This document shows positions 322 to 44,649 of a DNA stretch of 45,171 bases, piece after piece. The stretch lies in the sequence record OP251154.1; one strand, 5' to 3'. The translations under genes and the position numbers were made by a program. The notes under the pieces are model-generated. The model did not search any database. It worked only from the letters and a program-made list of their open reading frames with translations, and was not told the DNA's origin. Every line of letters starts with the position of its first letter. Position 1 is the stretch's first letter. The stretch comes from Escherichia phage TR2.

Positions 322-397
322 TGGTGTTCCGCGCTGGACTCGAACCAGCAACTAAGACTTAGGAGGTCTTTGCGTTATCCTGTTACGCCAGCAGAAC
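322..397 (-). tRNA. tRNA-Arg (anticodon CCU, reads AGG)
   Basis: Manual cloverleaf on minus strand: acceptor GTTCTGC/GCGGAAC (one G-U), D-stem GCGT/ACGC with GG in loop, anticodon stem AAGAC/GTCTT, loop CT-CCT-AA, T-arm GCTGG-TTCGAGT-CCAGC, 3' ACCA. Confidence 0.8.
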
Positions 398-2008: not shown

Positions 2009-2051
2009 ATTATGCCGGATTTCTCCGGCGATTGTTTAGCAATTCGTGCTA
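2009..2051 (-). promoter_or_regulatory. operator/-10 promoter cassette (TAGCA-N5-TGCTA, 22-nt spacer, CATAAT)
   Basis: Plus 2037-2051 TAGCAattcgTGCTA; -10 at plus 2009-2014; leader CATCGACAACACGA then ATG at 1977. Confidence 0.55.
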
Positions 2052-3422: not shown

Positions 3423-3542
3423 GATAGTGGTTGGCTTACATCGCGCTACGCCGGTTACGTGTATGCGGCAAAATGGCTCGGCCAGAATAAAAATCAACTT
3501 GTATGGTAGTCCATCCACCATTCATTCACCCTCACATCAATA

Positions 3543-3636
3543 ATTGCAAATTCTGCAACAATCAAAAAAATCATTGCATCAGATGCAATATTGCTATATG
3601 TGCAATAATGAGATGAATCATTGCAATAACTGCAAT
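3543..3636. promoter_or_regulatory. array of three ATTGCA-N5-TGCAAT palindromic operator-like sites
   Basis: Sites at 3543-3559 (ATTGCAaattcTGCAAC), 3573-3589 (ATTGCAtcagaTGCAAT), 3620-3636 (ATTGCAataacTGCAAT); same GCA-N5-TGC core as the promoter operator. Confidence 0.5.
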
Positions 3637-3655
3637 AATACATAAACCCAACGAA

Positions 3656-3699
3656 TAGCACTTTTTGCTAATGACAAACATTGGTAACGAGACCATAAT
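3656..3699 (+). promoter_or_regulatory. operator/-10 promoter cassette for the plus-strand early operon
   Basis: TAGCActtttTGCTA at 3656-3670, 23-nt spacer, CATAAT at 3694-3699, leader CATCAACAACGAGGAGAG, ATG at 3727. Confidence 0.55.
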
Positions 3700-3726
3700 G
3701 AATCCATCAACAACGAGGAGAGAGAT

Positions 3727-3924
3727 ATGAAACTTAAAGACGAAGCGTATGAGCAGCTAAAGCAGGAATGCGCTCTGATTGGGTTGAACGAGATGTACAG
3801 CGATATGGTTTTGCGCGGCAAGATTGATATTGACCTCGCTAAGCAATTCCAGTCAGATGATGAGTATCTATGTTGTGATGGCTTGGGCTGTGACGAATGT
3901 TTACCCTGGCAAGGAATGAGATGA
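3727..3924 (+). CDS. hypothetical protein (65 aa)
   Basis: ORF track; first gene of plus-strand operon. Confidence 0.5.
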   Translation: MKLKDEAYEQLKQECALIGLNEMYSDMVLRGKIDIDLAKQFQSDDEYLCCDGLGCDECLPWQGMR

Positions 3925-4115
3925 TGAAAGTTAAGTGCTTAAATAATCTTAATGATGGAACCTGGGAATTTAGAAACGGAAAGCATTACATTTATGATGA
4001 AATTTATGGTTACGTAGTTGGTGACAACTTCAAACCAGTTTACTGCTACATTGATGATGGACGTGTCATTGCAGCAATTAAAAATAGGCTTATTTTTGAA
4101 ACAGTAGAAGGTTAG
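3921..4115 (+). CDS. hypothetical protein (64 aa)
   Basis: ORF track frame; start moved to ATG 3921 (ATGATGA overlap with upstream stop, AAGGAA SD). Confidence 0.5.
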   Translation: MMKVKCLNNLNDGTWEFRNGKHYIYDEIYGYVVGDNFKPVYCYIDDGRVIAAIKNRLIFETVEG

Positions 4116-4116
4116 C

Positions 4117-4320
4117 ATGAAACTACTTTGCACCAATATCATTAAAGACTTTAACGACGCGTTCAATAAGGGCTCTGAATACAACGCTACCGATTTCAAA
4201 GATGACATGTGCCTTGTTACCGGAGAGCGTCCACATAAGCATCACGACACGTTTCAGGCTCTTAAATGCCTTGATTACGTCGTCATCCCAGGAATCGCAA
4301 CTTTTAAGGTGATTGAATAA
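4117..4320 (+). CDS. hypothetical protein (67 aa)
   Basis: ORF track; tightly packed in operon. Confidence 0.5.
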   Translation: MKLLCTNIIKDFNDAFNKGSEYNATDFKDDMCLVTGERPHKHHDTFQALKCLDYVVIPGIATFKVIE

Positions 4321-4481
4321 TGCTATTACCATCTGAGATTAACTATTTTGATCTGGAAGTTATTAGTTCTTACAGCGGCAAGGGCTGGCCTTGCGGGGAA
4401 TGGTTCAACGAGGACTTGCTTGAATCTCACGAGATTATGCTTAAGGCGATTGAGAAGGCGAGAAATAGCACGAATTGCTAA
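4320..4481 (+). CDS. small hypothetical protein (53 aa)
   Basis: Manually translated MLLPSEINYFDLEV...ARNSTNC; ATG overlaps upstream stop; last codons are the operator sequence. Confidence 0.45.
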   Translation: MLLPSEINYFDLEVISSYSGKGWPCGEWFNEDLLESHEIMLKAIEKARNSTNC

Positions 4482-4508
4482 AGCCCTTCGGGGCTTTTGT
4501 TGTATAGT
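4466..4508 (+). promoter_or_regulatory. operator/-10 promoter cassette
   Basis: TAGCAcgaatTGCTA at 4466-4480, 22-nt spacer holding hairpin GCCCttcgGGGC plus T-run, TATAGT at 4503-4508, then CATCGAAACGAAA. Confidence 0.55.
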
Positions 4509-4540
4509 TTCCTCATCGAAACGAAAGAGAACAAGTAATC

Positions 4541-4705
4541 ATGTTTGACAACTTTTACGACGCGATGGAAGAGGCAGTTTTCAGGGCCTCGCTTGATGGA
4601 AAGATTTACGGTTTAGTTCAGAAAGTTGATAAGATTGTTGTGCGTATCGTGCGCAAATCAGTACCAAACAAATTCATGTGGACTACAAAAGAGAGGGCTG
4701 AATAA
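4541..4705 (+). CDS. small hypothetical protein (54 aa)
   Basis: Manually translated MFDNFYDAMEEAVFRASLDGK...; TAATG overlap with next gene. Confidence 0.45.
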   Translation: MFDNFYDAMEEAVFRASLDGKIYGLVQKVDKIVVRIVRKSVPNKFMWTTKERAE

Positions 4706-5058
4706 TGACTACTACCATAACTAAAAATTTCATTAGCAAAGACAACCAACTGTTTAAAGCTCGCGTTAAAGATGGTGTCGAGCAAATCAAGAAAGATGGC
4801 AAATGGGTTAATCTGGAAGAACGTGGTAAATACATTAAGACCAGAACGCTTTACGTGACACATGTTAACCACAAATCTGGCGTTAAGAAGTATTTCAAAG
4901 AAGGAAAGAGATACCAGGTGCTAATGCATAGCGGGATGGGTCAGTCTGCTGGTTACATTTACGACGAAGATGGTAATGCATGGCAGCTATATCGAAGCGA
5001 AGATGTTGGTTTCTACACTCTTTGCCAGACTTACCTATTTGAATCATCTTACAAATAG
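4705..5058 (+). CDS. hypothetical protein (117 aa)
   Basis: ORF track. Confidence 0.55.
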   Translation: MTTTITKNFISKDNQLFKARVKDGVEQIKKDGKWVNLEERGKYIKTRTLYVTHVNHKSGVKKYFKEGKRYQVLMHSGMGQSAGYIYDEDGNAWQLYRSEDVGFYTLCQTYLFESSYK

Positions 5059-5101
5059 CAGCACGAATTGATAATGCATTATAAGCGGCTGTTGATATAA
5101 T
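5059..5101 (+). promoter_or_regulatory. operator/-10 promoter cassette
   Basis: CAGCAcgaatTGATA at 5059-5073, 22-nt spacer, TATAAT at 5096-5101, ATG at 5132. Confidence 0.55.
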
Positions 5102-5131
5102 GGCCGCTCAGAAACAATACGGAGAGAAGTA

Positions 5132-6715
5132 ATGTTTGATTTCAACGAAGATAAACTATCTGTTGAACAAGTTATGGCGATTGCCGCGACCGACAACCTC
5201 CCACCGCTTCGCGTTGCCATTAATGCAAATGGCTATCGGCAGTCTCAATCATTCTGGAAAACACCTGTGGAGATTGACGCAGGTAATGACAAGTACCCTG
5301 TAATATCTCTAGGCAATGACATTGATGTTGTTGGTAAGCTCTCGGCAAATATTGCTCGCTCAGTTCAGTTCCCAGAGTCATCAGCATACATGCACTTTTT
5401 GGGTTGTGTGTCCGCTGCGATGCTAGGGCGCTTTACTGTTGAGTATCACGGAACCCAGCAGCCAACATCGCTTTACGTGGTAACTAGCCAGCCGCCATCT
5501 ACTGGTAAGTCAGCCATTAACTCTCTGTCAATTGCGCCAATGATTGCTGAGACTGAGCGTTTGAACGAGGTGCGTAAACGTGACCGCAAAAAGATTATGG
5601 CTAAGCTGTCTGCGCTAGCAAAAGAAATGAAACAGGAGAAGTCACCATCTGAGATGGCTTCACTGTTTGAGGAGAAGGAAGATTTAGAGGAAAAGCTCGA
5701 GAAGCTGTGCGATATCGTATTCCCGGTCTCAGATACTACGCCAGAAGGTCTTGCACGAATCAACAACCGCCAGGGTAACTTTGCGGTCATCTCGGATGAG
5801 GCAACAAGCGTCAACTCATTATTGGGCATGACATACGGTGATGGTTCCAAGAAAACGAACAGCGAGCTTGTACTTAAAGCGTGGGATGCTGGTAACGTAT
5901 CTATTGCCCGCGCTAACGCAGAAAACAACATGAGTTTCGTGGCAATGGGGTGCATCTCTGTAATTGCTCAGGATGAAACAATCAATGCGATTATGAATGC
6001 TGGTGCGCGTGGTATTGGTGTTTCCGAGCGTTTCCTTCTGGTGCGTGAAAAGTCATTTCTTGGAGACCGCGTGTTTGTTGATGAGAATGGCGATTCAACA
6101 TACGAGGCTATTGATGATGGTCTTAAAGCAGACTATTTCCGTCTCGTTCATGAAATTATGAATGAAGTTGAAGTGAAACTGACAGTAAGTGCGTCATCCA
6201 TGCGCTACCTTAACCGAGCTCGCCAGGAAATGGAACCGCATCTTGGTGATGGCGGTAAATATTCCCACACGATGTTACGTGGTGCTCTTGGTAAATTTGA
6301 TAAGCAAGCAATCCGTATTGCCTCAGTATTGCACGTTATTCGCAACTGGTTCGCACCGGCAGGGTCGAGTCCGCAGAAATCAAGAGAGATTGAGCTTGAA
6401 ACAATGCAAGAAGCGGTTATGATTTTCCACGAGTTAAGCAAGACTTATTTGTCGTCCGCTAGTGCTGCTGGTCATGCTGGTGATAATGCTGAAATGAATA
6501 AGCTGGTTGATATCCTGATTAAGCAAGGTAAGAATGGGAAGGGTGTTGTTGGCGTTCGCTCACTGTATGAAGCAGCACGCAAAGTTAAACCTTTTGAAGG
6601 ACAGGCTGGCGTAATGACTCGCATCAAGGACCACTTGGTTCCTATGCTTGATGAGAAAAACTATACATGCCTGATTGGTGATAAGATTTACATTAATCCG
6701 CGATTGTTGGGGTGA
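5132..6715 (+). CDS. putative replication initiator/helicase-like P-loop NTPase (527 aa)
   Basis: Walker-A-like TSQPPSTGKSA; has its own promoter cassette; N- and C-terminal segments duplicated in 2049..2531. Confidence 0.6.
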   Translation: MFDFNEDKLSVEQVMAIAATDNLPPLRVAINANGYRQSQSFWKTPVEIDAGNDKYPVISLGNDIDVVGKLSANIARSVQFPESSAYMHFLGCVSAAMLGRFTVEYHGTQQPTSLYVVTSQPPSTGKSAINSLSIAPMIAETERLNEVRKRDRKKIMAKLSALAKEMKQEKSPSEMASLFEEKEDLEEKLEKLCDIVFPVSDTTPEGLARINNRQGNFAVISDEATSVNSLLGMTYGDGSKKTNSELVLKAWDAGNVSIARANAENNMSFVAMGCISVIAQDETINAIMNAGARGIGVSERFLLVREKSFLGDRVFVDENGDSTYEAIDDGLKADYFRLVHEIMNEVEVKLTVSASSMRYLNRARQEMEPHLGDGGKYSHTMLRGALGKFDKQAIRIASVLHVIRNWFAPAGSSPQKSREIELETMQEAVMIFHELSKTYLSSASAAGHAGDNAEMNKLVDILIKQGKNGKGVVGVRSLYEAARKVKPFEGQAGVMTRIKDHLVPMLDEKNYTCLIGDKIYINPRLLG

Positions 6716-6718
6716 TAG

Positions 6719-7054
6719 ATGTTTCTACTCGACGTATACAAGTTCTGCGAAGGATACAGGAACTTCAACCGCCAGCACCTGGCAAGATTCATCTACAAGC
6801 ACAAGGATTGTGCAAGGATGGCTAAGGCCGCTGGAGTTGATGAAAGGTATTTTGCATCTAGTTGCTCGAAGGAGTTTATGGCGAGAATGCTTACGGCTGG
6901 TTATCTTGATGGAGTTAATGGCGTGTACTGGTCAAAGGGTTCAGGCAAGAGGCCATTCCAGTTTGAGTTTATGAGCCTTGAAGGTAAGTCTAGTGCTTAT
7001 GTTAATGAGATGATGAATATAGCAACCATGAGTGACGAAGAATTGTTTGCATAA
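6719..7054 (+). CDS. hypothetical protein (111 aa)
   Basis: ORF track; last gene before bidirectional terminator. Confidence 0.5.
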   Translation: MFLLDVYKFCEGYRNFNRQHLARFIYKHKDCARMAKAAGVDERYFASSCSKEFMARMLTAGYLDGVNGVYWSKGSGKRPFQFEFMSLEGKSSAYVNEMMNIATMSDEELFA

Positions 7055-7082
7055 AAATAGCCCCATTACGGGGCTTTTTTGT
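7053..7082. terminator. bidirectional rho-independent terminator
   Basis: A-run, GCCCC-attac-GGGGC hairpin, T-run; between convergent genes. Confidence 0.7.
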
Positions 7083-7452
7083 TTTTCCTGAATATTACCA
7101 AAAGCAGAATGATGATGATGCACAACATAATTCCACTTCCAACCCACGGGATTGCAGAAGAATCATTGTTTGTGATTTCAATCTTCTCAGCTGTGATTGT
7201 TGACGCTTTGATTGAGTTATCAGAAGTCTTCTTACCGCTTGAGCTATCAAGAGTGTCAACATTAGAGTTCTTCAACTCAGCCTTTGCATTGGAACTTGAA
7301 TCAACCTTGTTTGTCAGACCTACGCCAACCTTATTGTTCTCCGCTCCAGCCTGGGCGCTAATCTCTGGCTTACTGCCAATCAATCCGGTCAGTGCTGATG
7401 TTGCCGAACAACCAGAAAGAAGAATTGCCGCAGCAATTAATACAGTCTTCAT
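7066..7452 (-). CDS. unimolecular spanin (T1 gp11-like)
   Basis: N-terminal lipoprotein signal with lipobox LSGC plus C-terminal transmembrane helix (IMLCIIIILLLVIF); sits downstream of the endolysin. Confidence 0.6.
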   Translation of the reverse strand: MKTVLIAAAILLSGCSATSALTGLIGSKPEISAQAGAENNKVGVGLTNKVDSSSNAKAELKNSNVDTLDSSSGKKTSDNSIKASTITAEKIEITNNDSSAIPWVGSGIMLCIIIILLLVIFRKNKKAP

Positions 7453-7934
7453 TTACCAACCCCGCTTAAGCACAATTTAATCTCCTCGTTACGCCTGTTT
7501 ACGAGACCCTTGACTACCTTCAGCTTGCCATTTATTCGAGCCTTGTTCCACATCCCGAGAGCCTTGCAACCCTGCTCAACTTTACCCTGGTTAATCAGCC
7601 GTACAGCCGTTGACTTCCTCATTGCAGAACCGCCAACGTTATAACTAAAGCTGATTAACGCCGCCCTTGTTTCTGGTGAAATTGGATAGGTAACTGCATC
7701 CTGCACATACTTACCATGAATCTTAATGTGCCTCTCCAGCAAGTTACGGCACTCCCTTGCGCTGTATACTTTACCAACAATAACATCTGGGCCAGTCACA
7801 CCAGAACAAACCGTAGGTATGCCAGCAATATCCATATATGGCCTGTACTCTACACCCTCAACAAGCTCAATAACCGGCGCTGCGATGTATATTGCCGCTG
7901 CCGTCGCTGCACTAATTATCAGCCTTTGCTTCAT
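7449..7934 (-). CDS. SAR endolysin (lysozyme-like)
   Basis: N-terminal signal-anchor MKQRLIISAATAAAIYIAAP followed by a lysozyme-like domain; position within the lysis cassette. Confidence 0.7.
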   Translation of the reverse strand: MKQRLIISAATAAAIYIAAPVIELVEGVEYRPYMDIAGIPTVCSGVTGPDVIVGKVYSARECRNLLERHIKIHGKYVQDAVTYPISPETRAALISFSYNVGGSAMRKSTAVRLINQGKVEQGCKALGMWNKARINGKLKVVKGLVNRRNEEIKLCLSGVGK

Positions 7935-8152
7935 TACTTACTCCTTATCTTGATTGCTGTTTTTAAGTCTCCTGATTCAAGTGCTCGTCGAATCGCCTGG
8001 CTATCCTTAAACTTCCAGTAAGACCCCCATAACCCAAAAACGATAAGAGCTACAAGGCTGATTATTGCGACTGTGATTTGACCAGTTGCGGCGCCAGTTA
8101 CAGCAGCCCCGCCAGTTGATGCCGTGGCGGCGTTAAGTACTTCCCTCATGTG
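7934..8152 (-). CDS. putative holin (72 aa)
   Basis: Start set at internal Met (MREVLN...) with AAAGGTGA SD; one TM helix plus charged C-terminus; overlaps endolysin start. Confidence 0.5.
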   Translation of the reverse strand, partial: HMREVLNAATASTGGAAVTGAATGQITVAIISLVALIVFGLWGSYWKFKDSQAIRRALESGDLKTAIKIRSK

Positions 8153-8222
8153 ATCACCTTTAAATCCTAATTTGTCAATAGATAGTGTAAATATAATACA
8201 GTAGGCCAGTTCGGATTGTAAG

Positions 8223-8250
8223 CACAAAAAAGGGGAGCCAAAAGGCCCCC
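8223..8250 (-). terminator. rho-independent terminator (minus strand)
   Basis: Minus-strand read GGGGGGCC-tttt-GGCTCCCC followed by T7. Confidence 0.55.
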
Positions 8251-8277
8251 CACTTGTAAAACTATGTTTTTGATGTG

Positions 8278-8451
8278 TTAATCTGCGATAATAAATTCCA
8301 CCAAAGAGCCATCAATCGGCGCAAGGATGTGAGTCATATCGTCGCCATAAATCTTGTAGTAACCGCTACCAAGATGCTCGCCGCTGTATGGCTGATTCTC
8401 AGTAAACGGAAGCGTCTTTGAGTTGTTTTTCACGCAGTATAGTTTAGTCAT
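8278..8451 (-). CDS. small hypothetical protein (57 aa)
   Basis: Manually translated MTKLYCVKNNSKTLPFTENQ...; sits between promoter cassette and terminator. Confidence 0.35.
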   Translation of the reverse strand: MTKLYCVKNNSKTLPFTENQPYSGEHLGSGYYKIYGDDMTHILAPIDGSLVEFIIAD

Positions 8452-8482
8452 TTTTGAATCCTCTGTTGTTTTCGATTTGGTG

Positions 8483-8525
8483 ATTATACCTAATTGCTGT
8501 GGCGATTGTTTAGCGATTCGTGCTA
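8483..8525 (-). promoter_or_regulatory. operator/-10 promoter cassette
   Basis: Gene-orientation TAGCAcgaatCGCTA (plus 8511-8525), 22-nt spacer, TATAAT (plus 8483-8488); operator encodes NSTNR-stop of upstream kinase. Confidence 0.55.
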
Positions 8526-9064
8526 TTTATTGCATCAATCACTTTTTCTGTAGTTATTTTAATATCACCTTCAATAACATCAATATCAATTTCCCTTGCG
8601 CAGAGGCCGCTAATGTATGACCTACTATCTCCTTCGAAAGTGTAACCAGGTCTATGAAGCCTAACCAATGTAACCTCAACACCACTTTCAATTAGTGGCT
8701 CAATTTCACTTGCAAATCCACCATCTGAACAGATGTGGCAACCATTGCCAAGAGACTGAGCTAGCCTTTTACCGAAAACTTCATCACCAAAAACTGGCTT
8801 CATCACTGATTCGCTAATCCAAATCATAAATTGACGAACAGTCATTCCACCAAGAAATTCATGTGGTGATTCTTTGTACTCTCGATCATCGTAATTCTTA
8901 ATAAATCCATCAAACTCATCGCTTGATAGCATGCTCTTAGCCACATTAAACATAGGTGATTTGAAAGAAACCTTATCCCTGCAAATTCCAAGTTTAACAA
9001 TGATATCTGCAACTGTATCTTTTCCAGCACCTGGGGGTCCATTAAGGATGATTAACTTTTTCAT
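8510..9064 (-). CDS. deoxynucleoside monophosphate kinase-like P-loop kinase
   Basis: N-terminus MKKLIILNGPPGAGKDT resembles T4 gp1 dNMP kinase; Walker A. Confidence 0.6.
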   Translation of the reverse strand: MKKLIILNGPPGAGKDTVADIIVKLGICRDKVSFKSPMFNVAKSMLSSDEFDGFIKNYDDREYKESPHEFLGGMTVRQFMIWISESVMKPVFGDEVFGKRLAQSLGNGCHICSDGGFASEIEPLIESGVEVTLVRLHRPGYTFEGDSRSYISGLCAREIDIDVIEGDIKITTEKVIDAINSTNR

Positions 9065-9113
9065 TTTATTTACTCAATTTTAATGGGGCCATTTAAAACC
9101 CCATTGATTTTAT

Positions 9114-9662
9114 TTATTTAGAATTCAGATTTTCTACACCATGAGATTTAAGGCCGCTGTGAACATTATAACCATAATCACAAACCTGATAAGTGGTTAT
9201 CCCTAGAGACCTAAAGTGATTTATTACATTCGGGCTATCATCCCAGGCCGCCGTAATTCTTTCAATCCCAATTGAATTTAAGAATTCCTCTTTAATTATC
9301 GTATCCTTCCTGTTGTCCGAAGCTGATCGCATTACCATTACGTTGTATTTGCATCCATTTTTAGTAAGCCAATCAAGTGACTCATCTAGAACATGATCAG
9401 ACCTTCCTGTTAAAATGATTATGTATGCGCCGCTATCATAAATCGAATTCATTACGCTTATCGTATCATTAAATGGAGAATCAAATCTGCTTAGTGAGTT
9501 AAACTCAATCCACGACTCGGTAAGGTGAGGGTCAGTTTTTGGGAGCTTATCAAGTCTGTGAGCCCCGTCAGAAAGCGTTCCGTCATAATCAAAAATATAA
9601 ACTGGCTTACCTTTGAAGTCATTGTTAATTGATTTTTTTATCATTGAATATAGTTGTTTCAT
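9114..9662 (-). CDS. HAD-superfamily phosphatase (nucleotidase or PNK 3'-phosphatase-like)
   Basis: HAD motif I FDYDGTL and downstream ILTGR; co-transcribed with the kinase. Confidence 0.5.
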   Translation of the reverse strand: MKQLYSMIKKSINNDFKGKPVYIFDYDGTLSDGAHRLDKLPKTDPHLTESWIEFNSLSRFDSPFNDTISVMNSIYDSGAYIIILTGRSDHVLDESLDWLTKNGCKYNVMVMRSASDNRKDTIIKEEFLNSIGIERITAAWDDSPNVINHFRSLGITTYQVCDYGYNVHSGLKSHGVENLNSK

Positions 9663-9692
9663 TTTTGTTTACCATCTCGTTTGTGTTTGATT

Positions 9693-9735
9693 AATATACC
9701 CAGATTTCTCTGGGATTTCTTAACAAAAAGTGCTA
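9693..9735 (-). promoter_or_regulatory. operator/-10 promoter cassette
   Basis: Gene-orientation TAGCActttttGTTA (plus 9721-9735), spacer with hairpin CCCAGAgaaaTCTGGG, TATATT (plus 9693-9698). Confidence 0.55.
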
Positions 9736-9739
9736 TTTA

Positions 9740-10879
9740 TTACATTCCAGGTCGATAGATATGACGACCAACCTCGCCAAACTCTTTGTGATAAACAATC
9801 GCGGCAGCCTGACGATATGAGCGCCACCCCCCTCGTGCTGCATACGCATCCTTGCTTGCTAGTGCTGGATGTACTTCGTCAATACCAAGAGTGCACTCTG
9901 TTACTGTTGCGTGGTGAAAATGCCCGGAATGGCAATAAACGAACTCGCATTCACCAAAGTCTTTCCTGTAATCAGTTGCCATAGCTGCAAGTCTACCTTC
10001 CGCTTTCTTCATTGTGTGACCATGAGTGTAGCCAAGTAGTGTTGAGCCAAATCTTGTCTTGTGCATAATCGCAGGGCTTACATCAACAAAGACACGACTC
10101 TCATTTTCATAAAATGCAGCCATCGCAGCCCGAAGCCAGATCATGCCGCTTTGGTCATGATTTCCCTCGATAATTTGAATGTCAACACTTTTATGCTTTT
10201 TAAGCATCTTTTCTACAGCGCCACGAATTGATCTAATTGCGATGTAGACTAACTTAGCGTAACGGCTATCTTGGTCAAGGCAGTGGCCACTAGCTGGAGT
10301 TACCGCCTCAAGACCATCTGAGTGGAGATAATCACCGCCAACAAGGATGACTGCCTTTTCTGAAGCTGGCGAAACTGATATTGCATGGTCAAAGTATGAG
10401 CCCATTAGTTTTTCTGCCGTTGCCGTGTCATAATTTTCACCAGACTCGTGGCGATGGGCCATCATTCCAATATGTATGTCGAAAATTGGATACAGTGTCA
10501 TTAGGTCAGGGTTTGTATCTTTGCCTGAATGCTTAACTTCCTCACACTTTGGCAACTCAGAACAGAAAGCCTCTCGCGCTTGCTCGAGCATAATTTCAAG
10601 GCGTTCATTATCAACGCTCGTCTTAACCCAGCGCAGCTTCTCATTCCCATCCGCATCAATCATGGTTGAAGTACCCTTGACTAAATAGCCGTCCGGCACT
10701 AACTTCTTGATACCATCATTGCCATGCCCAAACAAACCACTCTTAGCTAACTTACTGCGACGAAGTTCAACGTTGCGAATGTTCATGTCGTACTTCTCCG
10801 CAATCGCCTTGTTAGTCATGCCGTTTTTAAGTTCTTCGATTAGCTGATCGTTGGTAATCTTTGCTACTGTCATTTTCAA
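9740..10879 (-). CDS. calcineurin-like metallophosphoesterase with N-terminal HTH domain
   Basis: Full motif set FDIH, GDYLHSD, GNHD, GYTHGH, GHFHH; N-terminal ~60 aa look like a helix-turn-helix. Confidence 0.65.
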   Translation of the reverse strand: MKMTVAKITNDQLIEELKNGMTNKAIAEKYDMNIRNVELRRSKLAKSGLFGHGNDGIKKLVPDGYLVKGTSTMIDADGNEKLRWVKTSVDNERLEIMLEQAREAFCSELPKCEEVKHSGKDTNPDLMTLYPIFDIHIGMMAHRHESGENYDTATAEKLMGSYFDHAISVSPASEKAVILVGGDYLHSDGLEAVTPASGHCLDQDSRYAKLVYIAIRSIRGAVEKMLKKHKSVDIQIIEGNHDQSGMIWLRAAMAAFYENESRVFVDVSPAIMHKTRFGSTLLGYTHGHTMKKAEGRLAAMATDYRKDFGECEFVYCHSGHFHHATVTECTLGIDEVHPALASKDAYAARGGWRSYRQAAAIVYHKEFGEVGRHIYRPGM

Positions 10880-10954: not shown

Positions 10955-11206
10955 TCATACAACCTCCTTCAGCCAGTAATCAATTAAATTCGCACTAATT
11001 GCTAATTTCTCGTCCAGGTCAGTCATGCAGAGATTGCCGCACGCTGGCGAGTAATAAATCTGAACCCACTTTCCATCCTTCGTCTTCGCATTAACATCCG
11101 CATAGTCAGGAGGAAACCAATCAGCAATAGGTATCGCCCTAAACTTAGCACCACTACTCCCACTCACCAAATCATAATGCTCAGGCTGAAAATCTAATCC
11201 AAACAT
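10955..11206 (-). CDS. hypothetical protein (83 aa)
   Basis: ORF track. Confidence 0.4.
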   Translation of the reverse strand: MFGLDFQPEHYDLVSGSSGAKFRAIPIADWFPPDYADVNAKTKDGKWVQIYYSPACGNLCMTDLDEKLAISANLIDYWLKEVV

Positions 11207-11994: not shown

Positions 11995-12032
11995 TTTCTT
12001 TCTCTCTTCGTGTGTTTCGTTTCGATGAAGTG

Positions 12033-12075
12033 ATAATACACCACTTCATCAATTCGTCTTTAGCAATTCGTGCTA
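12033..12075 (-). promoter_or_regulatory. operator/-10 promoter cassette
   Basis: Plus 12061-12075 TAGCAattcgTGCTA; -10 TATTAT (plus 12033-12038) inside inverted repeat GATGAAGTG/CACTTCATC; leader CATCGAAACGAAA. Confidence 0.55.
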
Positions 12076-12492
12076 TTTTCTAATCATCTCTGCGAATGCA
12101 GCAAGAAAACCATCTCTGCCGTAGGCAACTCCTGCGAAACCGCCTGATTCCCTTACGCTTTTTAGGAATGACTTTTGCTCATCACTTACTGGGCTAGCCT
12201 GTGTTTTCCCAGCCCTCTTTAGCTCTATTGCGCCAAATGGATAACTTCCTCGTAATGACTCAGGTATTAGAAATAGGCAGTCTGATACGCCTTTAAGAAG
12301 TCCTTTAGCCTGGTCTTTCCTTGCCTGACCAATGCTCTTCATTGATTCATTAACTGTGTGCCAGTAAACAACCTGCGGATAGTTATACTTAACCCAATCA
12401 GAGCAAAAGATTTGTTCGTCGTCTTCCTTCGGGCATGACTTCACCGGGCCGCCATAGAACTCGAGGTAGTCAGTTTTGTCTGTAACTTTCAT
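12073..12492 (-). CDS. VRR-NUC domain nuclease
   Basis: PD-(D/E)XK-like motifs (GVSDCLFL, GAIELKRAGK, SPVSDEQKSFL); ATGA overlap with helicase stop. Confidence 0.6.
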   Translation of the reverse strand: MKVTDKTDYLEFYGGPVKSCPKEDDEQIFCSDWVKYNYPQVVYWHTVNESMKSIGQARKDQAKGLLKGVSDCLFLIPESLRGSYPFGAIELKRAGKTQASPVSDEQKSFLKSVRESGGFAGVAYGRDGFLAAFAEMIRK

Positions 12493-14483: not shown

Positions 14484-14524
14484 TTTAAATATCCTGATAG
14501 TTCTTTAGTTCGTTGCATTGATGT

Positions 14525-14566
14525 ATAATAACAGCCATCGAACCCATTGTTTAACAAAAAGTGCTA
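14525..14566 (-). promoter_or_regulatory. operator/-10 promoter cassette for helicase operon, inside a divergent region
   Basis: Plus 14552-14566 TAACAaaaagTGCTA; minus -10 TATTAT at plus 14525-14530 (21-nt spacer) overlaps a plus-strand TATAAT at 14524-14529. Confidence 0.5.
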
Positions 14567-14579
14567 TTGAGGTAATGAG

Positions 14580-15062
14580 ATGTGTGAAATCGACAAGCGA
14601 ACTATTAACGGCAATAACGGAACCGTGCGCACAAAAGACAAAAAGCAACGCAAACGACCATCAGGCTACTACGTATTGAAAGATGAGGTAAAGGCTGGGC
14701 TACGTGCTCGCCTGGAGATGGTTCTTGATTTCTACGGTACAAAGGCGAACATCGCAAAGCAGTTAAATGTGTCCAACCAAGCTGTATCGGAATGGTTTAA
14801 CCGCGGTATGATTTCGGCTCGAGGGGCTCAGCGAGCACATAATGCGTACAAGCGAAATAAGGAGGGATTTCGAGCTACATTCTGCCGACCAGACCTGCAA
14901 TTCGACGGAAACGGAAAACCGCTAACACTTCGATGCAAGAAGCGCCATATGCTTCGCGTAGTTACCGATGCAGAACTAGCAACAAAGCCACCCTGTCGAC
15001 CATGGCGAAAGAATAAGGCCGCTAACGAGGCAGCGCGAAAAGCTAAAGAGCAAGGGAAATAG
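14580..15062 (+). CDS. putative HTH DNA-binding protein (Cro/YdaS-like)
   Basis: HTH-like segment KANIAKQLNVSNQAVSEWFNRG; basic C-terminal half; first gene of plus operon. Confidence 0.5.
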   Translation: MCEIDKRTINGNNGTVRTKDKKQRKRPSGYYVLKDEVKAGLRARLEMVLDFYGTKANIAKQLNVSNQAVSEWFNRGMISARGAQRAHNAYKRNKEGFRATFCRPDLQFDGNGKPLTLRCKKRHMLRVVTDAELATKPPCRPWRKNKAANEAARKAKEQGK

Positions 15063-15102
15063 CACGAATTGATAAACAGTGGCGCTATACATTGTGTATA
15101 GT
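15060..15102 (+). promoter_or_regulatory. operator/-10 promoter cassette
   Basis: TAGCAcgaatTGATA at 15060-15074, 22-nt spacer, TATAGT at 15097-15102. Confidence 0.55.
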
Positions 15103-15128
15103 GCCTTTATTGTTTATGGAGGGTGTAT

Positions 15129-15653
15129 ATGAAAGTTAATGATTTCGTTTATGTTGACGATGAATTTAAATTAAGATGGAAGAGTCGAGGTGCCGAACTC
15201 TTTAAAACAGATAGGTCATCAAAGATCTGGAATAGTAGGTTTGCAGGCAAGAAATGTGGATACATTAGGGATGACGGTTATCTTTCTTTTGAGTTCAAAG
15301 GACGAGCATACAGAAATCACAGGGTGATATGGGAGATTGTAACTGGTAATGAAATAGGTGATAACATGGAGATCGATCATATAGATCATAATACAACAAA
15401 CAACAATATTGAAAACCTTAGAGTTGTTGACAGGAAAGAGAATTGCAAAAATCAACCCATGATGCCCCACAACTCAAGTGGATTCACAGGTGTTTACTGG
15501 TGGTCAACGAGAAACAAATGGAGAGCCCGCATTGAATGTGATGGCAAGGTGAAAACAAAATCATTTGAAGACTTTAATGATGCTGTCGAGTGGAGAAAAG
15601 AAATGAACATAAATCTTGGCTTTCACAAGAATCATGGGGATAAGAAAAAATGA
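15129..15653 (+). CDS. HNH homing endonuclease with AP2 domain
   Basis: HNH motif IDHIDHN...IENLRVV and AP2-like SGFTGVYW...W.A.I; start set at ATG 15129 after GGAGGG. Confidence 0.8.
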   Translation: MKVNDFVYVDDEFKLRWKSRGAELFKTDRSSKIWNSRFAGKKCGYIRDDGYLSFEFKGRAYRNHRVIWEIVTGNEIGDNMEIDHIDHNTTNNNIENLRVVDRKENCKNQPMMPHNSSGFTGVYWWSTRNKWRARIECDGKVKTKSFEDFNDAVEWRKEMNINLGFHKNHGDKKK

Positions 15654-16573
15654 AAACTTATGATAAGAAAGAAGTATTGCCAAGAATGCTGGGGATGTGG
15701 AAAGATGCTCTAATAAATATCTGTGATGCACCTGCGAACTTCTTTAATGGCAAGCACCATCCATGCCTATACTGTGGAGGTCGGGATAGAGCTAGATGGA
15801 CTGATAACCTATCTATAAAAGGTGATGGCGGAAATATATGCAATCAGTGTGGGAACGACACTGGGATAGGATTAATGATGAAGCTTACTGGAATGAACTA
15901 CAGTGAGGCTATAAATACGCTTGGTGACTGGTTAAACCTGGTTCCAGTTGAGGTTGTAGCTAAAGCAAACAAAAGAGCATCAAGAACATCACCATACAAA
16001 ATGGGCGCTCAGATTGACCACGAAAGATGCTTAGAGATAATGGAAAGGACGGAAAGAGTAGAATCAACTCCACTCAGTACATACGAGGGTATCTATAGCG
16101 AGTTCGGCTTTGATGTTGGCAGGACGAAATCAGGAGAACTAATACACGCAGTGCCGTGCTTTATGGCTTATAGTGACGGCGTGTCAGAAGAAATGTGCAA
16201 TGTGATGTTTATCAATGAGGAAGGGGATGTTAGTTATGCTGCAAAAGATTATACTCGCCAATCTGTGGCTGTTATTGGTTCCCTTAAGGATAGTGAGTAC
16301 GCTTATCTGGTCGATAATTGGATTGATGGTGTTCGCGTTCATCTTGCTACTGGCAGTCGCTGCGTTCTTGTTTGCCACTCCAGCTACAACATGGAAATGG
16401 TTGCTTATGCGCTTAGAAACTACAAGTTACGCGTCGCTTGCACTCGCCACTCTTTTGATTTACTCGCCGTTGCTGATGATCGCAATCTTGATGTTGTAAT
16501 GCCAAATGATGATAATTTTTTCAAGTCAGGAATAAGAAAGCGCATATACAAGGCAAGCGAATTACTAGACTAA
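15650..16573 (+). CDS. putative DNA primase (zinc-ribbon N-terminus)
   Basis: Cys4 zinc ribbon HPCLYCGG...CNQCG at N-terminus; replication-module context. Confidence 0.5.
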   Translation: MKTYDKKEVLPRMLGMWKDALINICDAPANFFNGKHHPCLYCGGRDRARWTDNLSIKGDGGNICNQCGNDTGIGLMMKLTGMNYSEAINTLGDWLNLVPVEVVAKANKRASRTSPYKMGAQIDHERCLEIMERTERVESTPLSTYEGIYSEFGFDVGRTKSGELIHAVPCFMAYSDGVSEEMCNVMFINEEGDVSYAAKDYTRQSVAVIGSLKDSEYAYLVDNWIDGVRVHLATGSRCVLVCHSSYNMEMVAYALRNYKLRVACTRHSFDLLAVADDRNLDVVMPNDDNFFKSGIRKRIYKASELLD

Positions 16574-16597
16574 CCTCCTTCTGGAGGTTTTTTTATG
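16571..16597 (+). terminator. rho-independent terminator
   Basis: CCTCC-ttctg-GAGGT hairpin followed by T7. Confidence 0.7.
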
Positions 16598-16621
16598 CCT
16601 GAAAGATGATACAATCCAACT

Positions 16622-16636
16622 TATCAATTAGTGCTA
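16622..16636. promoter_or_regulatory. orphan operator copy TATCA-N5-TGCTA
   Basis: Palindrome 22 nt upstream of the tail-fibre ATG with no -10 at the canonical spacing in either orientation. Confidence 0.4.
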
Positions 16637-19324: not shown

Positions 19325-19367
19325 ATGATAACCCACCAGTTAATTTTGTCTTTAGCAATTAGTGCTA
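19325..19367 (-). promoter_or_regulatory. operator/-10 promoter cassette
   Basis: Plus 19353-19367 TAGCAattagTGCTA, 22-nt spacer, TATCAT (plus 19325-19330), leader CATTGAAACGA. Confidence 0.55.
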
Positions 19368-19878: not shown

Positions 19879-19921
19879 ATATTAACCCATCCTTTGTTTT
19901 TGTTTTTAACAAAAAGTGCTA
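19879..19921 (-). promoter_or_regulatory. operator/-10 promoter cassette
   Basis: Plus 19907-19921 TAACAaaaagTGCTA, 22-nt spacer, TAATAT (plus 19879-19884). Confidence 0.55.
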
Positions 19922-23185: not shown

Positions 23186-23446
23186 ATGAATAAGTCAGAA
23201 TTTATAGATAAGGTTAAGTTGGCAGGTTTGAAATTCAAAGTTGTTAGCGTTAGAGTCAATAAAGACAGGAACTACGGCCTCGAACAACAGTACTTCTCAC
23301 TTTGGCTGACTGGTTCAAATAGCTGCGACGAATCCTTAACTATGAGTGTTGACTGCATGCCACTACTTTTAAGATTCAAGTCACTGGAAAAGGCAATCAA
23401 TGAGAAGGATAAATATAACAGGTGGTTGAATAGCATTAATTGCTAA
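23186..23446 (+). CDS. hypothetical protein (86 aa)
   Basis: ORF track; C-terminal NSINC-stop encoded by the next operator. Confidence 0.5.
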   Translation: MNKSEFIDKVKLAGLKFKVVSVRVNKDRNYGLEQQYFSLWLTGSNSCDESLTMSVDCMPLLLRFKSLEKAINEKDKYNRWLNSINC

Positions 23447-23473: not shown

Positions 23474-23514
23474 TACTCCATCGAAACGAAATGCACATTC
23501 TAAGGAATAAGAAA

Positions 23515-35117: not shown

Positions 35118-35156
35118 TTTGCTTACCTCTATAATCCATCTCGTTTCGATAAAGTA

Positions 35157-35203: not shown

Positions 35204-35225
35204 TAAAAAACCCTCCGAAGAGGGT
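35204..35225 (-). terminator. rho-independent terminator after the major tail gene
   Basis: Minus-strand read CCCTC-ttcg-GAGGG followed by T6. Confidence 0.6.
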
Positions 35226-35230
35226 TAATT

Positions 35231-35890
35231 TTATACTAGCTCAGAAGCCACAGAACTCAGCCTACCACGGATGGATACCGCGATGGATACCGTTTCGATT
35301 TCGTTAACACCAATGCTCGGGGTGTCGTTGAAAGAGATAGTGCCAGACTGAAGTCGCATCTCACTAGCGCGAGGCACGAACAGACGGATAGCAACAACCT
35401 GACCAGACTCATCATAGTTACGCAGAATCGGATATACCGGGTTGGTGTATTCGTGCGCGAACGTGTAGGTGTTAGTTACCGCAGACTTATAGGTTGGAAT
35501 CTTTTGCTCGCGGTCATCAGATAAACACTGGAAGTTAACGAACTGCTGTTCGCCGCCGTCAGTGGATACATCCTGAACACAAGGAACTTCAAACCAGCTA
35601 AGAATCTTAACTACTTCACCAGTTAAACCGGCTGGAAACTTAGTGTTGTTGGAGGTATCAATACCTTCAACAGTTACGTCCGAACCAGATACCGCAGTGA
35701 CACGAACTTGCTTATCAGCCAGAAGTGTTGAAGCTGAGCTGGTGAACAGCAGGTAATCCCCGCGCGCAATACCTGTGGCGTCGGACAAAGTTAAAACAGG
35801 AGCAACAGCATTGGTAATTGCTGTTACGTCGATAGTATTACCCCTAGTGCCCTCTACGAAGACCTGGGTGCCATTGCTGAGATGGGCCAT
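35231..35890 (-). CDS. putative major tail protein
   Basis: 219 aa, position between head-tail joining genes and chaperones; followed by strong terminator. Confidence 0.5.
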   Translation of the reverse strand: MAHLSNGTQVFVEGTRGNTIDVTAITNAVAPVLTLSDATGIARGDYLLFTSSASTLLADKQVRVTAVSGSDVTVEGIDTSNNTKFPAGLTGEVVKILSWFEVPCVQDVSTDGGEQQFVNFQCLSDDREQKIPTYKSAVTNTYTFAHEYTNPVYPILRNYDESGQVVAIRLFVPRASEMRLQSGTISFNDTPSIGVNEIETVSIAVSIRGRLSSVASELV

Positions 35891-35901
35891 ATATTTTCCT
35901 T

Positions 35902-36300
35902 TTAGTCAAGACGAACATAGAAACGAACTGGAATAAACCAGCCAGATTTTGACTTCACTACCGGGTGAACTACTCCGCCCTCATAAATGTAGCCTGTGTC
36001 AAGCATTGTACCATCAAGCATTGATTCTGCCAATTGATTCGCCAACCTCCTTGCGCTATCAACACCATCACCTGGTGAGAAAAATACAGAGACCTGAACC
36101 ATGCCGACATAGTATTTGCACTTGCGACTCAAGCTATAGGTTACGGTATCGGCCTCAGTGTAGTCGTACTTCAGCCACATACCGCCATTACTTGGAGGAG
36201 AGAATGCTACGTTTTCGTAGGAGATTGGATACCTGACTGGAAACGTTTTAACCAAATCAGTCACAAACCTCCTTGATGCTAAAGATAGCTCATACTGCAT
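35902..36300 (-). CDS. putative tail terminator / tail completion protein
   Basis: Position and size only. Confidence 0.4.
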   Translation of the reverse strand: MQYELSLASRRFVTDLVKTFPVRYPISYENVAFSPPSNGGMWLKYDYTEADTVTYSLSRKCKYYVGMVQVSVFFSPGDGVDSARRLANQLAESMLDGTMLDTGYIYEGGVVHPVVKSKSGWFIPVRFYVRLD

Positions 36301-37810: not shown

Positions 37811-38419
37811 TTATAGCACTAAACAATCGCCTTCGTGAACCCCATTGGCGTTTCCGTACTCGCCGAATATTTCTTTACACCAACTGTCGTAACACTCCTT
37901 AGCCTCTTCAATTGTGTCAAACCTTTTAGCCATCCTTACATCTCCGCAATCCTTTTGTATCTGGGCTTTCCACTTCACCCTTGATTTATCGTAGCTAACA
38001 CCTTTAAATCCACTCTTGTTCCTTTTGTATAGGCTCGTATTCATCATGTTCTCACTTCGAGTAACAACCCTTAGGTTTTCCACCCTATTGTTTAATGAGT
38101 TACCATCAATGTGATCTATCTCACCTGTCGGCCAACTCCTGTGATGATAAAACCACTTTAACTTATGCATTGAAACGTGAAACTTCTTCCCGGAAACTTT
38201 AATACATAGCTTCCACATCTTACTTTCTGGGCATGTTGGGTTTGGAGTGAATTCACCTCCAGCAACCTTTCCGGCGTACCTTGAATTCCATACATTTGTA
38301 AACCTATCATTTCCCGGCTTTACTTTCCATGTCATAACGGGACTTTCAGAATCTGATTCAAGTCTTGATGTTAGCTCTTCGTGAGTTAGTAGTTCTTCAA
38401 TTTTCATTTTCGCCTCCAT
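37811..38419 (-). CDS. HNH homing endonuclease with AP2 domain
   Basis: IDHIDGNSLNNRVENLRVV plus AP2-like KSGFKGVSY...W.A.I. Confidence 0.8.
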   Translation of the reverse strand: MEAKMKIEELLTHEELTSRLESDSESPVMTWKVKPGNDRFTNVWNSRYAGKVAGGEFTPNPTCPESKMWKLCIKVSGKKFHVSMHKLKWFYHHRSWPTGEIDHIDGNSLNNRVENLRVVTRSENMMNTSLYKRNKSGFKGVSYDKSRVKWKAQIQKDCGDVRMAKRFDTIEEAKECYDSWCKEIFGEYGNANGVHEGDCLVL

Positions 38420-38435
38420 TGTTTTGATGGAAACA

Positions 38436-38478
38436 AAAATACCACCTTTCGGTGGTATTGTTTTGTCATTTAGTGCTA
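38436..38478 (-). promoter_or_regulatory. operator/-10 promoter cassette with embedded terminator hairpin (weak -10)
   Basis: Gene-orientation TAGCActaaaTGACA (plus 38464-38478), 22-nt spacer holding ATACCACCgaaaGGTGGTAT, TATTTT, leader CATCAAAACAA. Confidence 0.4.
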
Positions 38479-44578: not shown

Positions 44579-44606
44579 ATGATCACCTCGCTAGTTTGTT
44601 GGGCCC

Positions 44607-44649
44607 ATTATCTCATTGATTGGGCCTCTTCTTTTAACAAAAAGTGCTA
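44607..44649 (-). promoter_or_regulatory. operator/-10 promoter cassette
   Basis: Plus 44635-44649 TAACAaaaagTGCTA, 22-nt spacer with GGGCCCA/TGGGCC inverted repeat, GATAAT (plus 44607-44612). Confidence 0.5.

Follow-up and report, generated by a model that had tools for sequence, protein, structure and literature searches.

Positions 4,321–4,508 of the Escherichia phage TR2 genome (sequence record OP251154.1; the whole analyzed stretch of 45,171 nucleotides (nt) is referred to below as the window) raise the question of what a GC-rich hairpin does between an oriented repeat and a −10-like hexamer, i.e., inside the putative promoter of the next gene. An earlier note on this sequence had proposed that such hairpins terminate the upstream gene; the observation behind it is confirmed and is more general than first stated. 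Strong hairpins are enriched between the repeat and the predicted start in the window and in related T1-like phages, carry features of RNA on the sense strand, and are nearly absent where no same-strand gene lies upstream. We consider it probable that they are RNA stem-loops on read-through transcripts of the upstream same-strand gene, forming the 3′ end of these transcripts by full or partial intrinsic termination inside the next promoter.

Repeat cassettes and hairpins of the window

In the 6.3 kb compared (positions 3500–9800), the window matches Escherichia phage TR3 (Drexlerviridae, Braunvirinae) at 100% identity; its identity to phages ES, phiA2-1, and ACG-M12 is 75–87%. TR3 is annotated as a typical T1-like genome, and an RNA polymerase gene is absent from this annotation. 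The repeat was defined as TAGCAC-N4-TGNTAA, and spacer lengths are counted from this definition. A scan of the window with at most one mismatch gives 19 matches, against 0.83 expected. About 20 oriented repeat cassettes lie 55–80 nt 5′ of ATG codons, in the same orientation as the downstream gene, and have a common order: repeat, 21-nt spacer, −10-like hexamer (with variants TATAGT, TATAAT, and CATAAT), 6-nt C-rich discriminator (tacTCC/tacCCC), A, ribosome-binding site (RBS), and ATG. If the start lies 7 nt past the −10, as we infer, the repeat occupies approximately positions −49 to −34 and the spacer −33 to −13.

Four strong hairpins lie wholly in the spacer, in cassettes 4466+, 9735−, 38478−, and 2051−, with the following features (class letters are explained in the next section; ORF, open reading frame):

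4466–4481, plus strand: repeat TAGCACGAATTGCTAA, encoding the final S-T-N-C of the upstream 53-amino-acid ORF, with TAA 4479–4481 as its stop
4480–4497, plus strand: class A hairpin AAAGCCC-UUCG-GGGCUUU, GC core 4483–4494 (GCCCttcgGGGC)
4503–4508, plus strand: −10-like TATAGT, 21 nt after the repeat 4466–4481
9720–9735, minus strand: repeat TAGCACTTTTTGTTAA, 4 nt after the stop of a 379-amino-acid gene (9740–10879)
9699–9714, minus strand: class B hairpin CCCAGA-GAAA-UCUGGG (CCCAGAtttcTCTGGG), abutting the −10 TATATT (9693–9698)
38463–38478, minus strand: repeat variant TAGCACTAAATGACAA, directly after the stop (38479–38481) of the major capsid gene
38438–38459, minus strand: class B hairpin AAUACCACC-GAAA-GGUGGUAUU, then UUUGUUUCC, from the terminator scan
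2036–2051, minus strand: repeat TAGCACGAATTGCTAA, with TAG 2049–2051 as the stop of ORF 2049–2531
2014–2029, minus strand: class B hairpin GCCGGA-GAAA-UCCGGC (GCCGGAgaaaTCCGGC)

Fold energies of the in-spacer hairpins were calculated for a 27-nt segment, consisting of the last three bases of the repeat (TAA; CAA at 38478−), the spacer, and 3 nt more, and compared with 200 shuffles. All four are GC-rich stem-loops on the transcribed strand, with UUCG or GAAA loops and z-scores from −2.8 to −5.7, and lie 3′ of a same-strand stop codon (4479–4481, 9740–9742, 38479–38481, and 2049–2051, respectively). In cassette 4466+, where the N preceding S-T-N-C of the 53-amino-acid ORF uses the two bases 4464–4465 before the repeat, the 3′ end of the repeat supplies the A-tract of the hairpin, UUCG forms the tetraloop, and the T-tract 4495–4502 reaches the −10; the stem is followed by TTTTGTTG and then by TATAGT. 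This hairpin has the shape of a canonical intrinsic terminator: it folds at −10.2 kcal/mol (z −2.8, more precisely −2.76; 3/200 shuffles as good), and the terminator scan picks it up at 4480–4497 on the plus strand with the tail TGTTGTATAG. The predicted start is the A at 4515, with the leader ATCGAAACGA at 4515–4524 and the ATG of the next gene at 4541.

The functional sense of the 9735− hairpin is the minus strand, where its loop is GAAA; its U-tract is weak (UAUAUUAA), and its energy is −9.5 kcal/mol (z −3.2; 1/200 shuffles as good). At 38478−, the cited interval 38439–38458 corresponds to ATACCACC/GGTGGTAT, and on the minus strand has a GAAA loop and the tail TTTTTGTTT; the 3′ arm and the U-tract overlap the −10-like TATTTT (38436–38441), with an HNH endonuclease gene next. 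This hairpin (−12.0 kcal/mol, z −5.7, 0/200 shuffles as good) again has a canonical terminator shape. The 2051− hairpin, absent from the list in the earlier note, has no sense-strand U-tract, and the −10 CATAAT (2009–2014) begins with the last C of the stem; the hairpin folds at −11.9 kcal/mol (z −4.7, 0/200 shuffles as good) and is retained in phage ES (45200) with a GUAA loop. All four sequences cited in the earlier note are present where it placed them, and three of them (4483–4494, 9699–9714, and 38439–38458) do lie in the spacer; the fourth, 44601–44626, instead spans the −10, the spacer alone folding at 0 kcal/mol. Hairpins that include the −10 are seen in four cassettes of the window:

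44602–44626, minus strand: class C stem GGCCCA...UGGGCC of 6 bp, the loop holding the −10 GATAAT (44607–44612); the 3′ arm falls within the discriminator
5084–5108, plus strand: class C stem AGCGGC...GCCGCU bracketing the −10 TATAAT (5096–5101); repeat 5059–5074; −14.0 kcal/mol, z −2.9
12022–12052, minus strand: class C stem of 14 pairs including G·U, bracketing the −10 TATTAT (12033–12038) and extending into the leader; −17.4 kcal/mol, z −4.8
15081–15105, plus strand: 11-bp hairpin GGCGCUAUACA-UUG-UGUAUAGUGCC, then UUUAUUGUUU, from the terminator scan; −17.0 kcal/mol, z −4.3

The first of these belongs to cassette 44649− (repeat 44634–44649); its bracketing stem (−11.9 kcal/mol, z −2.7) has no U-tract, and an HNH gene is next. 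In cassette 12075− (repeat 12060–12075), the TAG of the repeat is the stop of ORF 12073–12492; in cassette 15060+ (repeat 15060–15075), it is the stop of a regulator gene (14580–15062), the −10 TATAGT (15097–15102) lies inside the 3′ arm, and a T-tract follows. The sense-strand hits of the terminator scan among cassettes are 4480–4497, 38438–38459, and 15081–15105. A U-tract, taken as approximately five or more U in 8 nt, is present on the sense strand in 4466+ (TTTTGTTG), 38478− (TTTTGTTT), and 15060+ (TTTATTGT), and falls short in 9735− (TATATTAA), 2051− (ATAATTAC), and 44649− (AACAAACT); a real T-run on the sense strand is thus confined to the former three. In their style of stem and tetraloop, the cassette hairpins match the stand-alone terminators of this phage.

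Strong local hairpins are common in the window, with 135 at −9.5 kcal/mol or lower on both strands, and the cassette hairpins might be chance or compositional by-products of short GC-rich spacers. However, such a hairpin is found in 8 of the 20 repeat-to-start intervals, compared to 1.08 expected from the whole-window density (Poisson P ~2e-5), and the family-wide controls given below point in the same direction.

Hairpin classes and gene context across the family

For a census of cassettes, the full genomes of ACG-M12, ES, T1, and TLS and IMG/VR contigs were scanned for the repeat. IMG/VR loci were taken from among the matches listed and kept only if they had at least two repeats per locus; single matches in unrelated contigs, which are many and due to chance, were dropped. 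Removal of near-duplicates (de-duplication at >25% difference) left 99 non-redundant cassettes among the matches listed. A good −10 lies at exactly 21 nt from the repeat in 143 of 265 distinct repeat matches listed, at 20 nt in 13, and at 22 nt in 16. Thus, the 22-nt spacer of the earlier note becomes 21 nt with the definition of the repeat used here, while the fixed distance claimed there is upheld: it is 21 nt with or without a hairpin.

Real spacers fold at −7 kcal/mol or lower in 31% of the 99 cassettes, compared to 2.9% of shuffles and 7–10% of half-swap chimeras (maximum 16%). Column-wise covariation is unsuitable here, as orthologous hairpins are not homologous base for base, being replaced, moved, or lost, and covariation on pre-selected hairpins would be circular; shuffle, half-swap, and arm-swap controls over the 99 cassettes were used instead. 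A sliding scan of the same cassettes yields 59 hairpins between the repeat and the predicted start, centred +4 to +27 past the repeat; the repeat itself holds none, and few lie further downstream. They form three classes:

Class A (n = 7, including 4466+): starts at the AAA of the repeat; UNCG loops; T-tract up to the −10; mean 5.1 T in the 8 nt past the GC core
Class B (n = 22): GC stem ends at spacer position 21–22; mean 3.5 T in the 8 nt past the GC core
Class C (n = 30): 5′ arm from the spacer paired with a 3′ arm from the discriminator, the loop holding the −10; end at approximately −1; mean 1.9 T in the 8 nt past the GC core

Bracketing stems of the class C type are seen in 20% of cassettes and in 1.3% of arm-swap controls, with 0/200 permutations matching the observed value. 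Chance is therefore the least probable of the explanations considered here, being already contradicted by the controls. Stems bracketing the −10 exclude in-spacer stems: they occur in 0/31 cassettes with an in-spacer hairpin and in 32% of the others. Class C stems end approximately one base before the predicted start and are followed by the A-rich leader, usually with no U-tract. In T1, class C-type stems are found in cassettes 1451, 2270, 2831, 3536, 4345, 4865, 36445, 47116, and 47632. In class B, 12/22 cassettes have a −10 that begins with C (CATAAT), compared to 5/40 of those without a hairpin, and the stem appears to extend at the expense of T at −12, a trade-off between overlapping signals; 2009–2014 (minus strand) is an example from the window of such a C-start −10 beside a class B stem.

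The hairpins are not symmetrical with respect to the strand. GNRA or UNCG is seen on the sense strand in 14 of 31 in-spacer loops, while the complements of these motifs occur in none (0/31), and G·U pairs, which would be A·C mismatches on the other strand, make up 21/229 in-spacer pairs and 41/304 class C pairs. In 25/31 in-spacer hairpins, the RNA of the sense strand folds more stably than that of the antisense strand; by class, the ratio is 17:4 for B and 28:1 for C, although the latter could partly reflect G+T-rich composition. This evidence favours hairpins acting as RNA on the sense strand and, since the predicted start is downstream of the stems, the hairpin RNA can only arise from upstream read-through.

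The same observations bear on the suggestion of the earlier note that the inverted repeats act as DNA, cruciform extrusion or a rigid GC-rich spacer altering the repeat-to-(−10) geometry and thus tuning promoter strength. The fixed 21-nt distance, the position of the stems exactly within promoter DNA, and a class C loop that could in principle expose the −10 as a single strand fit this idea; it conflicts with the G·U pairs, the strand-specific tetraloops (14 versus 0), the variable position of the stem (5′-justified, 3′-justified, or bracketing), and the near absence of hairpins where there is no upstream same-strand gene, not predicted for a promoter-intrinsic role. Further, 40 of the 99 cassettes have no hairpin at all; hence, the hairpins are not part of the promoter mechanism. 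Extrusion of a 16–20-nt hairpin would leave 2–6 bp between TTGnTA and the −10 rather than a workable 17. Stems of 6–8 bp are also short for stable cruciforms, and we regard a role of the hairpins as DNA as very unlikely.

Of the tandem cassettes, i.e., those preceded by a same-strand ORF of at least 45 codons ending at the repeat, 57/81 have a hairpin, compared to 2/18 of the other cassettes (Fisher p = 4.5e-6). In 53 of the 81 tandem cassettes, the upstream stop codon is inside the repeat, being its TAG in 36 and its TAA in 17; the repeat is thus both coding sequence and regulatory site, and the stop together with the fixed spacing leaves the spacer as the only room for a terminator. In the window, these stops are:

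Repeat TAG as upstream stop: 2049–2051, 12073–12075, 15060–15062, 19365–19367, 19919–19921, 44647–44649
Repeat TAA as upstream stop: 4479–4481, 8510–8512, 23444–23446

Since the start is predicted, one may also assume that it lies 5′ of the hairpins, in a promoter in or before the repeat, and that these sense-strand structures, found 5′ of each gene, are 5′-terminal stem-loops stabilizing the downstream mRNA. Against this, a −10-like hexamer follows at a fixed 21 nt, with the conserved C-rich discriminator and A start after it; inspection of the repeat reveals no −35/−10 pair of workable spacing; first-in-block cassettes mostly lack a hairpin; and the class A T-tracts are typical of terminators. 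Such 5′ stem-loops are, in our opinion, highly improbable.

Four clear stand-alone terminators lie just 5′ of the repeat (window 35209–35226, ACG-M12 13126, and two IMG/VR loci), all in cassettes with no hairpin inside. Overall, hairpins upstream of the repeat and internal ones show no sign of excluding each other (9 versus 6, p = 1.0), because most of the "upstream" matches are weak coding-region folds.

At orthologous junctions, the hairpins are replaced rather than conserved base by base. After the 379-amino-acid gene (9740–10879), seven lineages (the window and six others) have hairpins with unrelated stems (CCCAGA, GCCGC, CCCGC, GCCTC, ATAGCGCC, ATGCCG, and GGTGCGG; GAAA loop in 4/7), and two lineages have none. 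Upstream of the gene encoding MFDNFYD, the window has the class A hairpin, locus L144 a weak class B one, ACG-M12 none, and three phages no cassette. The hairpin structure is selected for, yet has a fast turnover, as with terminators. Three annotated terminators of T1 (NC_005833), 38973–39001, 39998–40024, and 41980–42007, lie in repeat-to-(−10) spacers, the last being the hairpin at the junction after the 379-amino-acid gene; the TLS terminator T62 begins at the base immediately following the direct repeat DR12.

Termination and alternative readings

In the reading that we prefer, the junction would comprise the end of the upstream gene, often with TAG or TAA of the repeat as its stop, the repeat, the 21-nt spacer, the −10, the 6-nt C-rich discriminator, and the A start, and the terminator would have to be written into the spacer, the sole sequence-free stretch of this crowded junction. 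In class A, the repeat AAA would act as the A-tract and the T-tract would end at the −10; in class B, the GC stem would abut the −10, with the T-rich −10 and the discriminator forming an imperfect U-tract; in class C, the spacer and the discriminator would pair, placing the −10 in the loop. RNA 3′ ends of intrinsic terminators map 7–9 nt past the stem, and pure RNA polymerase suffices for termination. Ordinary intrinsic termination is expected for 4466+, 38478−, and 15060+, with the transcript ending approximately 10–14 bp before the next start in 4466+, and nearer to or past the predicted start in the other two. For 9735− and 2051−, weak termination is expected, possibly boosted by polymerase or an activator at the coupled promoter, and/or 3′-end protection. 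Judging by their sequences, class A, 38478−, and 15060+ are predicted to be canonical intrinsic terminators, while classes B and C may be weak or promoter-assisted terminators, or RNA 3′-end protectors. Terminator function, as claimed in the earlier note, is supported by the position just past a same-strand stop, the enrichment, the sense RNA signatures, and the confinement to tandem junctions, and is restricted by a usable U-tract in only two of the four in-spacer hairpins; the fusion of terminator and promoter into one punctuation unit is a fair description of the context, the enrichment, and the RNA signatures obtained in silico.

Several observations weigh against this reading. The U-tracts of classes B and C are poor (means 3.5 and 1.9 T), i.e., most hairpins of the family are not canonical terminators, and the −10 region in class B is not T-richer than in cassettes without a hairpin. 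On the sense strand, the terminator scan does not pick up the hairpins of 9735− and 2051−; it does so only on the antisense strand. Upstream of the gene for MFDNFYD, the hairpin is absent in ACG-M12 and different in L144, so that its conservation does not extend to all orthologous junctions. The cassettes share ancestry, and de-duplication at >25% difference leaves partial dependence; the strand bias of class C has the possible compositional component mentioned above. Finally, we found no transcript map, Term-seq, or in vitro termination data for any T1-like phage in the literature searched (one RNA-seq paper mentioning Drexlerviridae concerned a T5-like phage), and the 3′ and 5′ ends given here are predicted.

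Part of this evidence would also suit non-terminating hairpins, serving as barriers to 3′-to-5′ exonucleases or as processing landmarks on polycistronic read-through RNA, so that the stabilities of cistrons differ. Classes B and C fit this best: their U-tracts are poor, T past the stem is not co-selected in class B, class C stems end approximately one base before the predicted start with the A-rich leader next, and the stems are very stable, with GNRA or UNCG loops. The textbook U-tracts of class A, 38478−, and 15060+ and the stem and tetraloop style shared with the stand-alone terminators of the same phage speak for termination; moreover, the barrier and terminator roles are compatible. As the general explanation, a purely protective role seems to us rather unlikely, although clearly less so than a role of the hairpins as DNA.

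A further possibility, which we likewise hold to be doubtful, is that the class B and C hairpins lacking a U-tract are not degenerate terminators but a distinct, family-wide punctuation mechanism of T1-like phages, in which the 3′ end arises via the occupied downstream promoter or an endonuclease cut. In the former case, a roadblock by polymerase or by a repeat-binding protein, or sigma-dependent pausing at the −10, would form the upstream 3′ end; in the latter, an endonuclease would cut just past the stem, giving the same AUCGAAACGA 5′ end as initiation. If true, a single co-evolving unit of approximately 60 bp would unite stop codon, factor site, RNA hairpin, and −10.

Intrinsic termination inside the next promoter has a parallel in bacteria, where promoter-coupled terminators have been described, with the stem-loop over the −35/spacer, the T-tract ending at the −10, and the transcript ending approximately 10 bp ahead of the following start; they occur preferentially between tandem genes, save intergenic space, and have a higher termination efficiency when the promoter is bound (Fletcher, Forrest ... 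Grainger, bioRxiv 10.64898/2026.08.19.745784). Phages are not mentioned in that paper. Class A (4466+) shares exactly this layout, and the enrichment between tandem genes is common to the phage hairpins (p = 4.5e-6, as above). In terms of the 35-bp criterion for promoter-coupled terminators, the 4466+ stem ends 18 nt before the start at 4515, ends and starts being predicted here. There are also differences. The T-tract lies directly 5′ of the −10 in class A only (7/99), whereas class B stems reach the −10 with no T-tract in between, and most phage hairpins (classes B and C) lack the defining T-tract; the phage promoter has no −35 and carries instead a 16–21-nt repeat at a fixed 21 nt from the −10, with the upstream stop codon inside it; and the phage elements are predicted from sequence. 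The T1 (NC_005833) rho-independent terminators have a GC-rich stem, a stable tetraloop, and a T-rich run, and three of the annotated ones are of the in-spacer type; the late-region ones differ in being stand-alone, with the RBS directly after and no repeat, while those in cassettes borrow the −10 as part of the U-tract. The cassette hairpins are best read as a compact phage instance of the promoter-coupled terminator architecture.

The repeat, the T1 terminator annotations, and promoter–terminator coupling were already known (TLS paper, 2024; GenBank; bioRxiv, 2026), while the family-wide fusion of repeat, hairpin, and promoter, with its three classes, apparently lacks an earlier description. 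A compact virulent phage would pack four signals, i.e., the stop codon, the factor-recognition site, the transcript-end hairpin, and the −10, into approximately 60 bp, so that promoter–terminator coupling, newly proposed for bacteria, would also apply to a phage family and to promoters without a −35. This would explain the scarcity of promoters found by standard tools in Drexlerviridae genomes and the contact of some annotated T1 and TLS terminators with direct repeats, and would provide a simple annotation rule for approximately 20 transcription units per genome. The cassettes could serve as small portable "insulator plus promoter" parts and as mutational targets for the boosting of a weak terminator by a bound promoter.

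The repeat, its candidate binder, and other sites

The repeat contains a partial dyad, TAGCA-N5-TGCTA, with its centre near −42 if the start is 7 nt past the −10; the right half-site is often TGTTA or TGATA, making the repeat asymmetric. Class II activator sites are centred at similar positions, e.g., lambda cI at PRM at −42 and CRP or FNR at −41.5, while the T4 MotA box of middle promoters is at −30. The position near −42 would thus be activator-like, and the repeat is probably a site of an activator or of another factor recruiting RNA polymerase. It is the element named "operator" in the earlier note, a function that is putative. As in class II activator and MotA promoters, the place of the −35 is taken by a protein-type site whose distance from the −10 is fixed; unlike the MotA box at −30, the phage repeat would be centred near −42, is often asymmetric, and has only a candidate binder. 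N4 virion-RNA-polymerase promoters are DNA hairpins with a 5–7-bp stem and a 3-nt loop at a fixed position, recognized by a phage-encoded polymerase; the feature in common is a short hairpin just 5′ of the start in a coliphage. An N4-type hairpin promoter was rejected, as TR3 has no annotated RNA polymerase, the loops are mostly of 4 nt, their position varies, and G·U pairs occur.

Two other arrangements of the promoter were considered and rejected: TTGnTA as a −35, which needs a 22-nt spacer and would retain only 2–6 bp on hairpin extrusion, and a promoter within the repeat, with TGnTAAAA as an extended −10, which lacks T at the last hexamer position and an upstream partner. The repeat RNA itself could form a 5-bp hairpin UAGCA/UGCUA, e.g., at 4466–4480 and 9721–9735; the TGTTA variant would retain this pairing through a G·U wobble, and the TGATA variant would not.

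For TLS, a 21-nt direct repeat aaATAGCACnnnTTGnTAAAA was reported, and its presence in T1, Rtp, and Rogue1 noted as unpublished; its function was left open (stoperator, enhancer, or UP-like), and the terminators of Table S1 include ones adjoining DR12 and DR10 (PMC11447400). The window repeat agrees with the TLS-type consensus aaATAGCACnnnTTGnTAAAA, being multicopy, oriented with transcription, and 5′ of start codons, and the same holds for the repeats of T1, TLS, ACG-M12, and ES; the G/T/A subgroups by middle bases are also shared with the TLS direct repeats. The TLS paper (PMC11447400) gives no −10 partner, fixed 21-nt spacing, stop-codon overlap, or link between repeat and terminator.

A candidate repeat binder, proposed from sequence similarity, is the product of the conserved regulator gene at 14580–15062 (plus strand), which belongs to phrog_2856 ("transcriptional regulator") with a weak, sub-threshold Cro-like helix-turn-helix. 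The gene is divergent from a repeat promoter, so that the helicase repeat (14551–14566, minus strand) lies in the leader of the regulator. The control region contains two −10 elements overlapping face to face, the plus-strand one being TATAAT at 14524–14529; of only three canonical sigma-70 promoters in TLS, one (P57) belongs to the regulator. This arrangement suggests that an early regulator may act on the repeats, with autoregulation. Many of the repeat promoters drive genes of the early region, and this speaks for activity independent of a phage protein. This control region and two unusual repeat sites of the window are:

14484–14579, divergent: control region between the regulator and helicase genes; TLS counterpart 35833–35920
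16621–16636, minus strand: antisense repeat opposing the flanking genes, between the primase terminator (16572–16589) and the ATG at 16659, 22 nt 5′ of this ATG
10990–11005, plus strand: orphan repeat-like site TCGCACTAATTGCTAA, opposite to the local genes, inside ORF 10955–11206

The antisense repeat is conserved together with the same terminator-like hairpin in four phages (the window, ACG-M12 32099, ES 28757, and T1 34903); it may be the sign of a short antisense transcript, or else of a roadblock or an operator within the leader of the gene that follows. The orphan site at 10990–11005 has no −10 after it and is likely to be a relic or to have no function.

The conserved leader ATCGAAACGA is present in many cassettes, both in the window and in T1, ACG-M12, and ES; it begins at the cassette A, approximately 7 nt past the −10, and could be an initial-transcribed-sequence signal or a 5′-leader signal. 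The variants ATCAAAACGA and ATCGACAACGA are also seen. Examples of the leader or a variant in the window are:

4515–4524, plus strand
12017–12026, minus strand
23480–23489, plus strand
35141–35150, minus strand

The HNH endonuclease genes of the window, 15123–15653 (plus strand), 37811–38419 (minus strand), and 44072–44578 (minus strand), are regularly preceded by a hairpin-bearing cassette, as are those in relatives:

Hairpin cassettes ahead of HNH genes: window 15060+, 38478−, 44649−; ACG-M12 17153, 39123; T1 41957
HNH genes in relatives: ACG-M12 17224, 39194; T1 42028

These genes are probably mobile, and it looks as if each HNH insertion brings or acquires its own terminator-plus-promoter unit. 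An Rfam scan of the whole window finds only a tRNA gene, at 325–397 (minus strand; RF00005, 59 bits), corresponding to the tRNA-Arg annotated in TR3.

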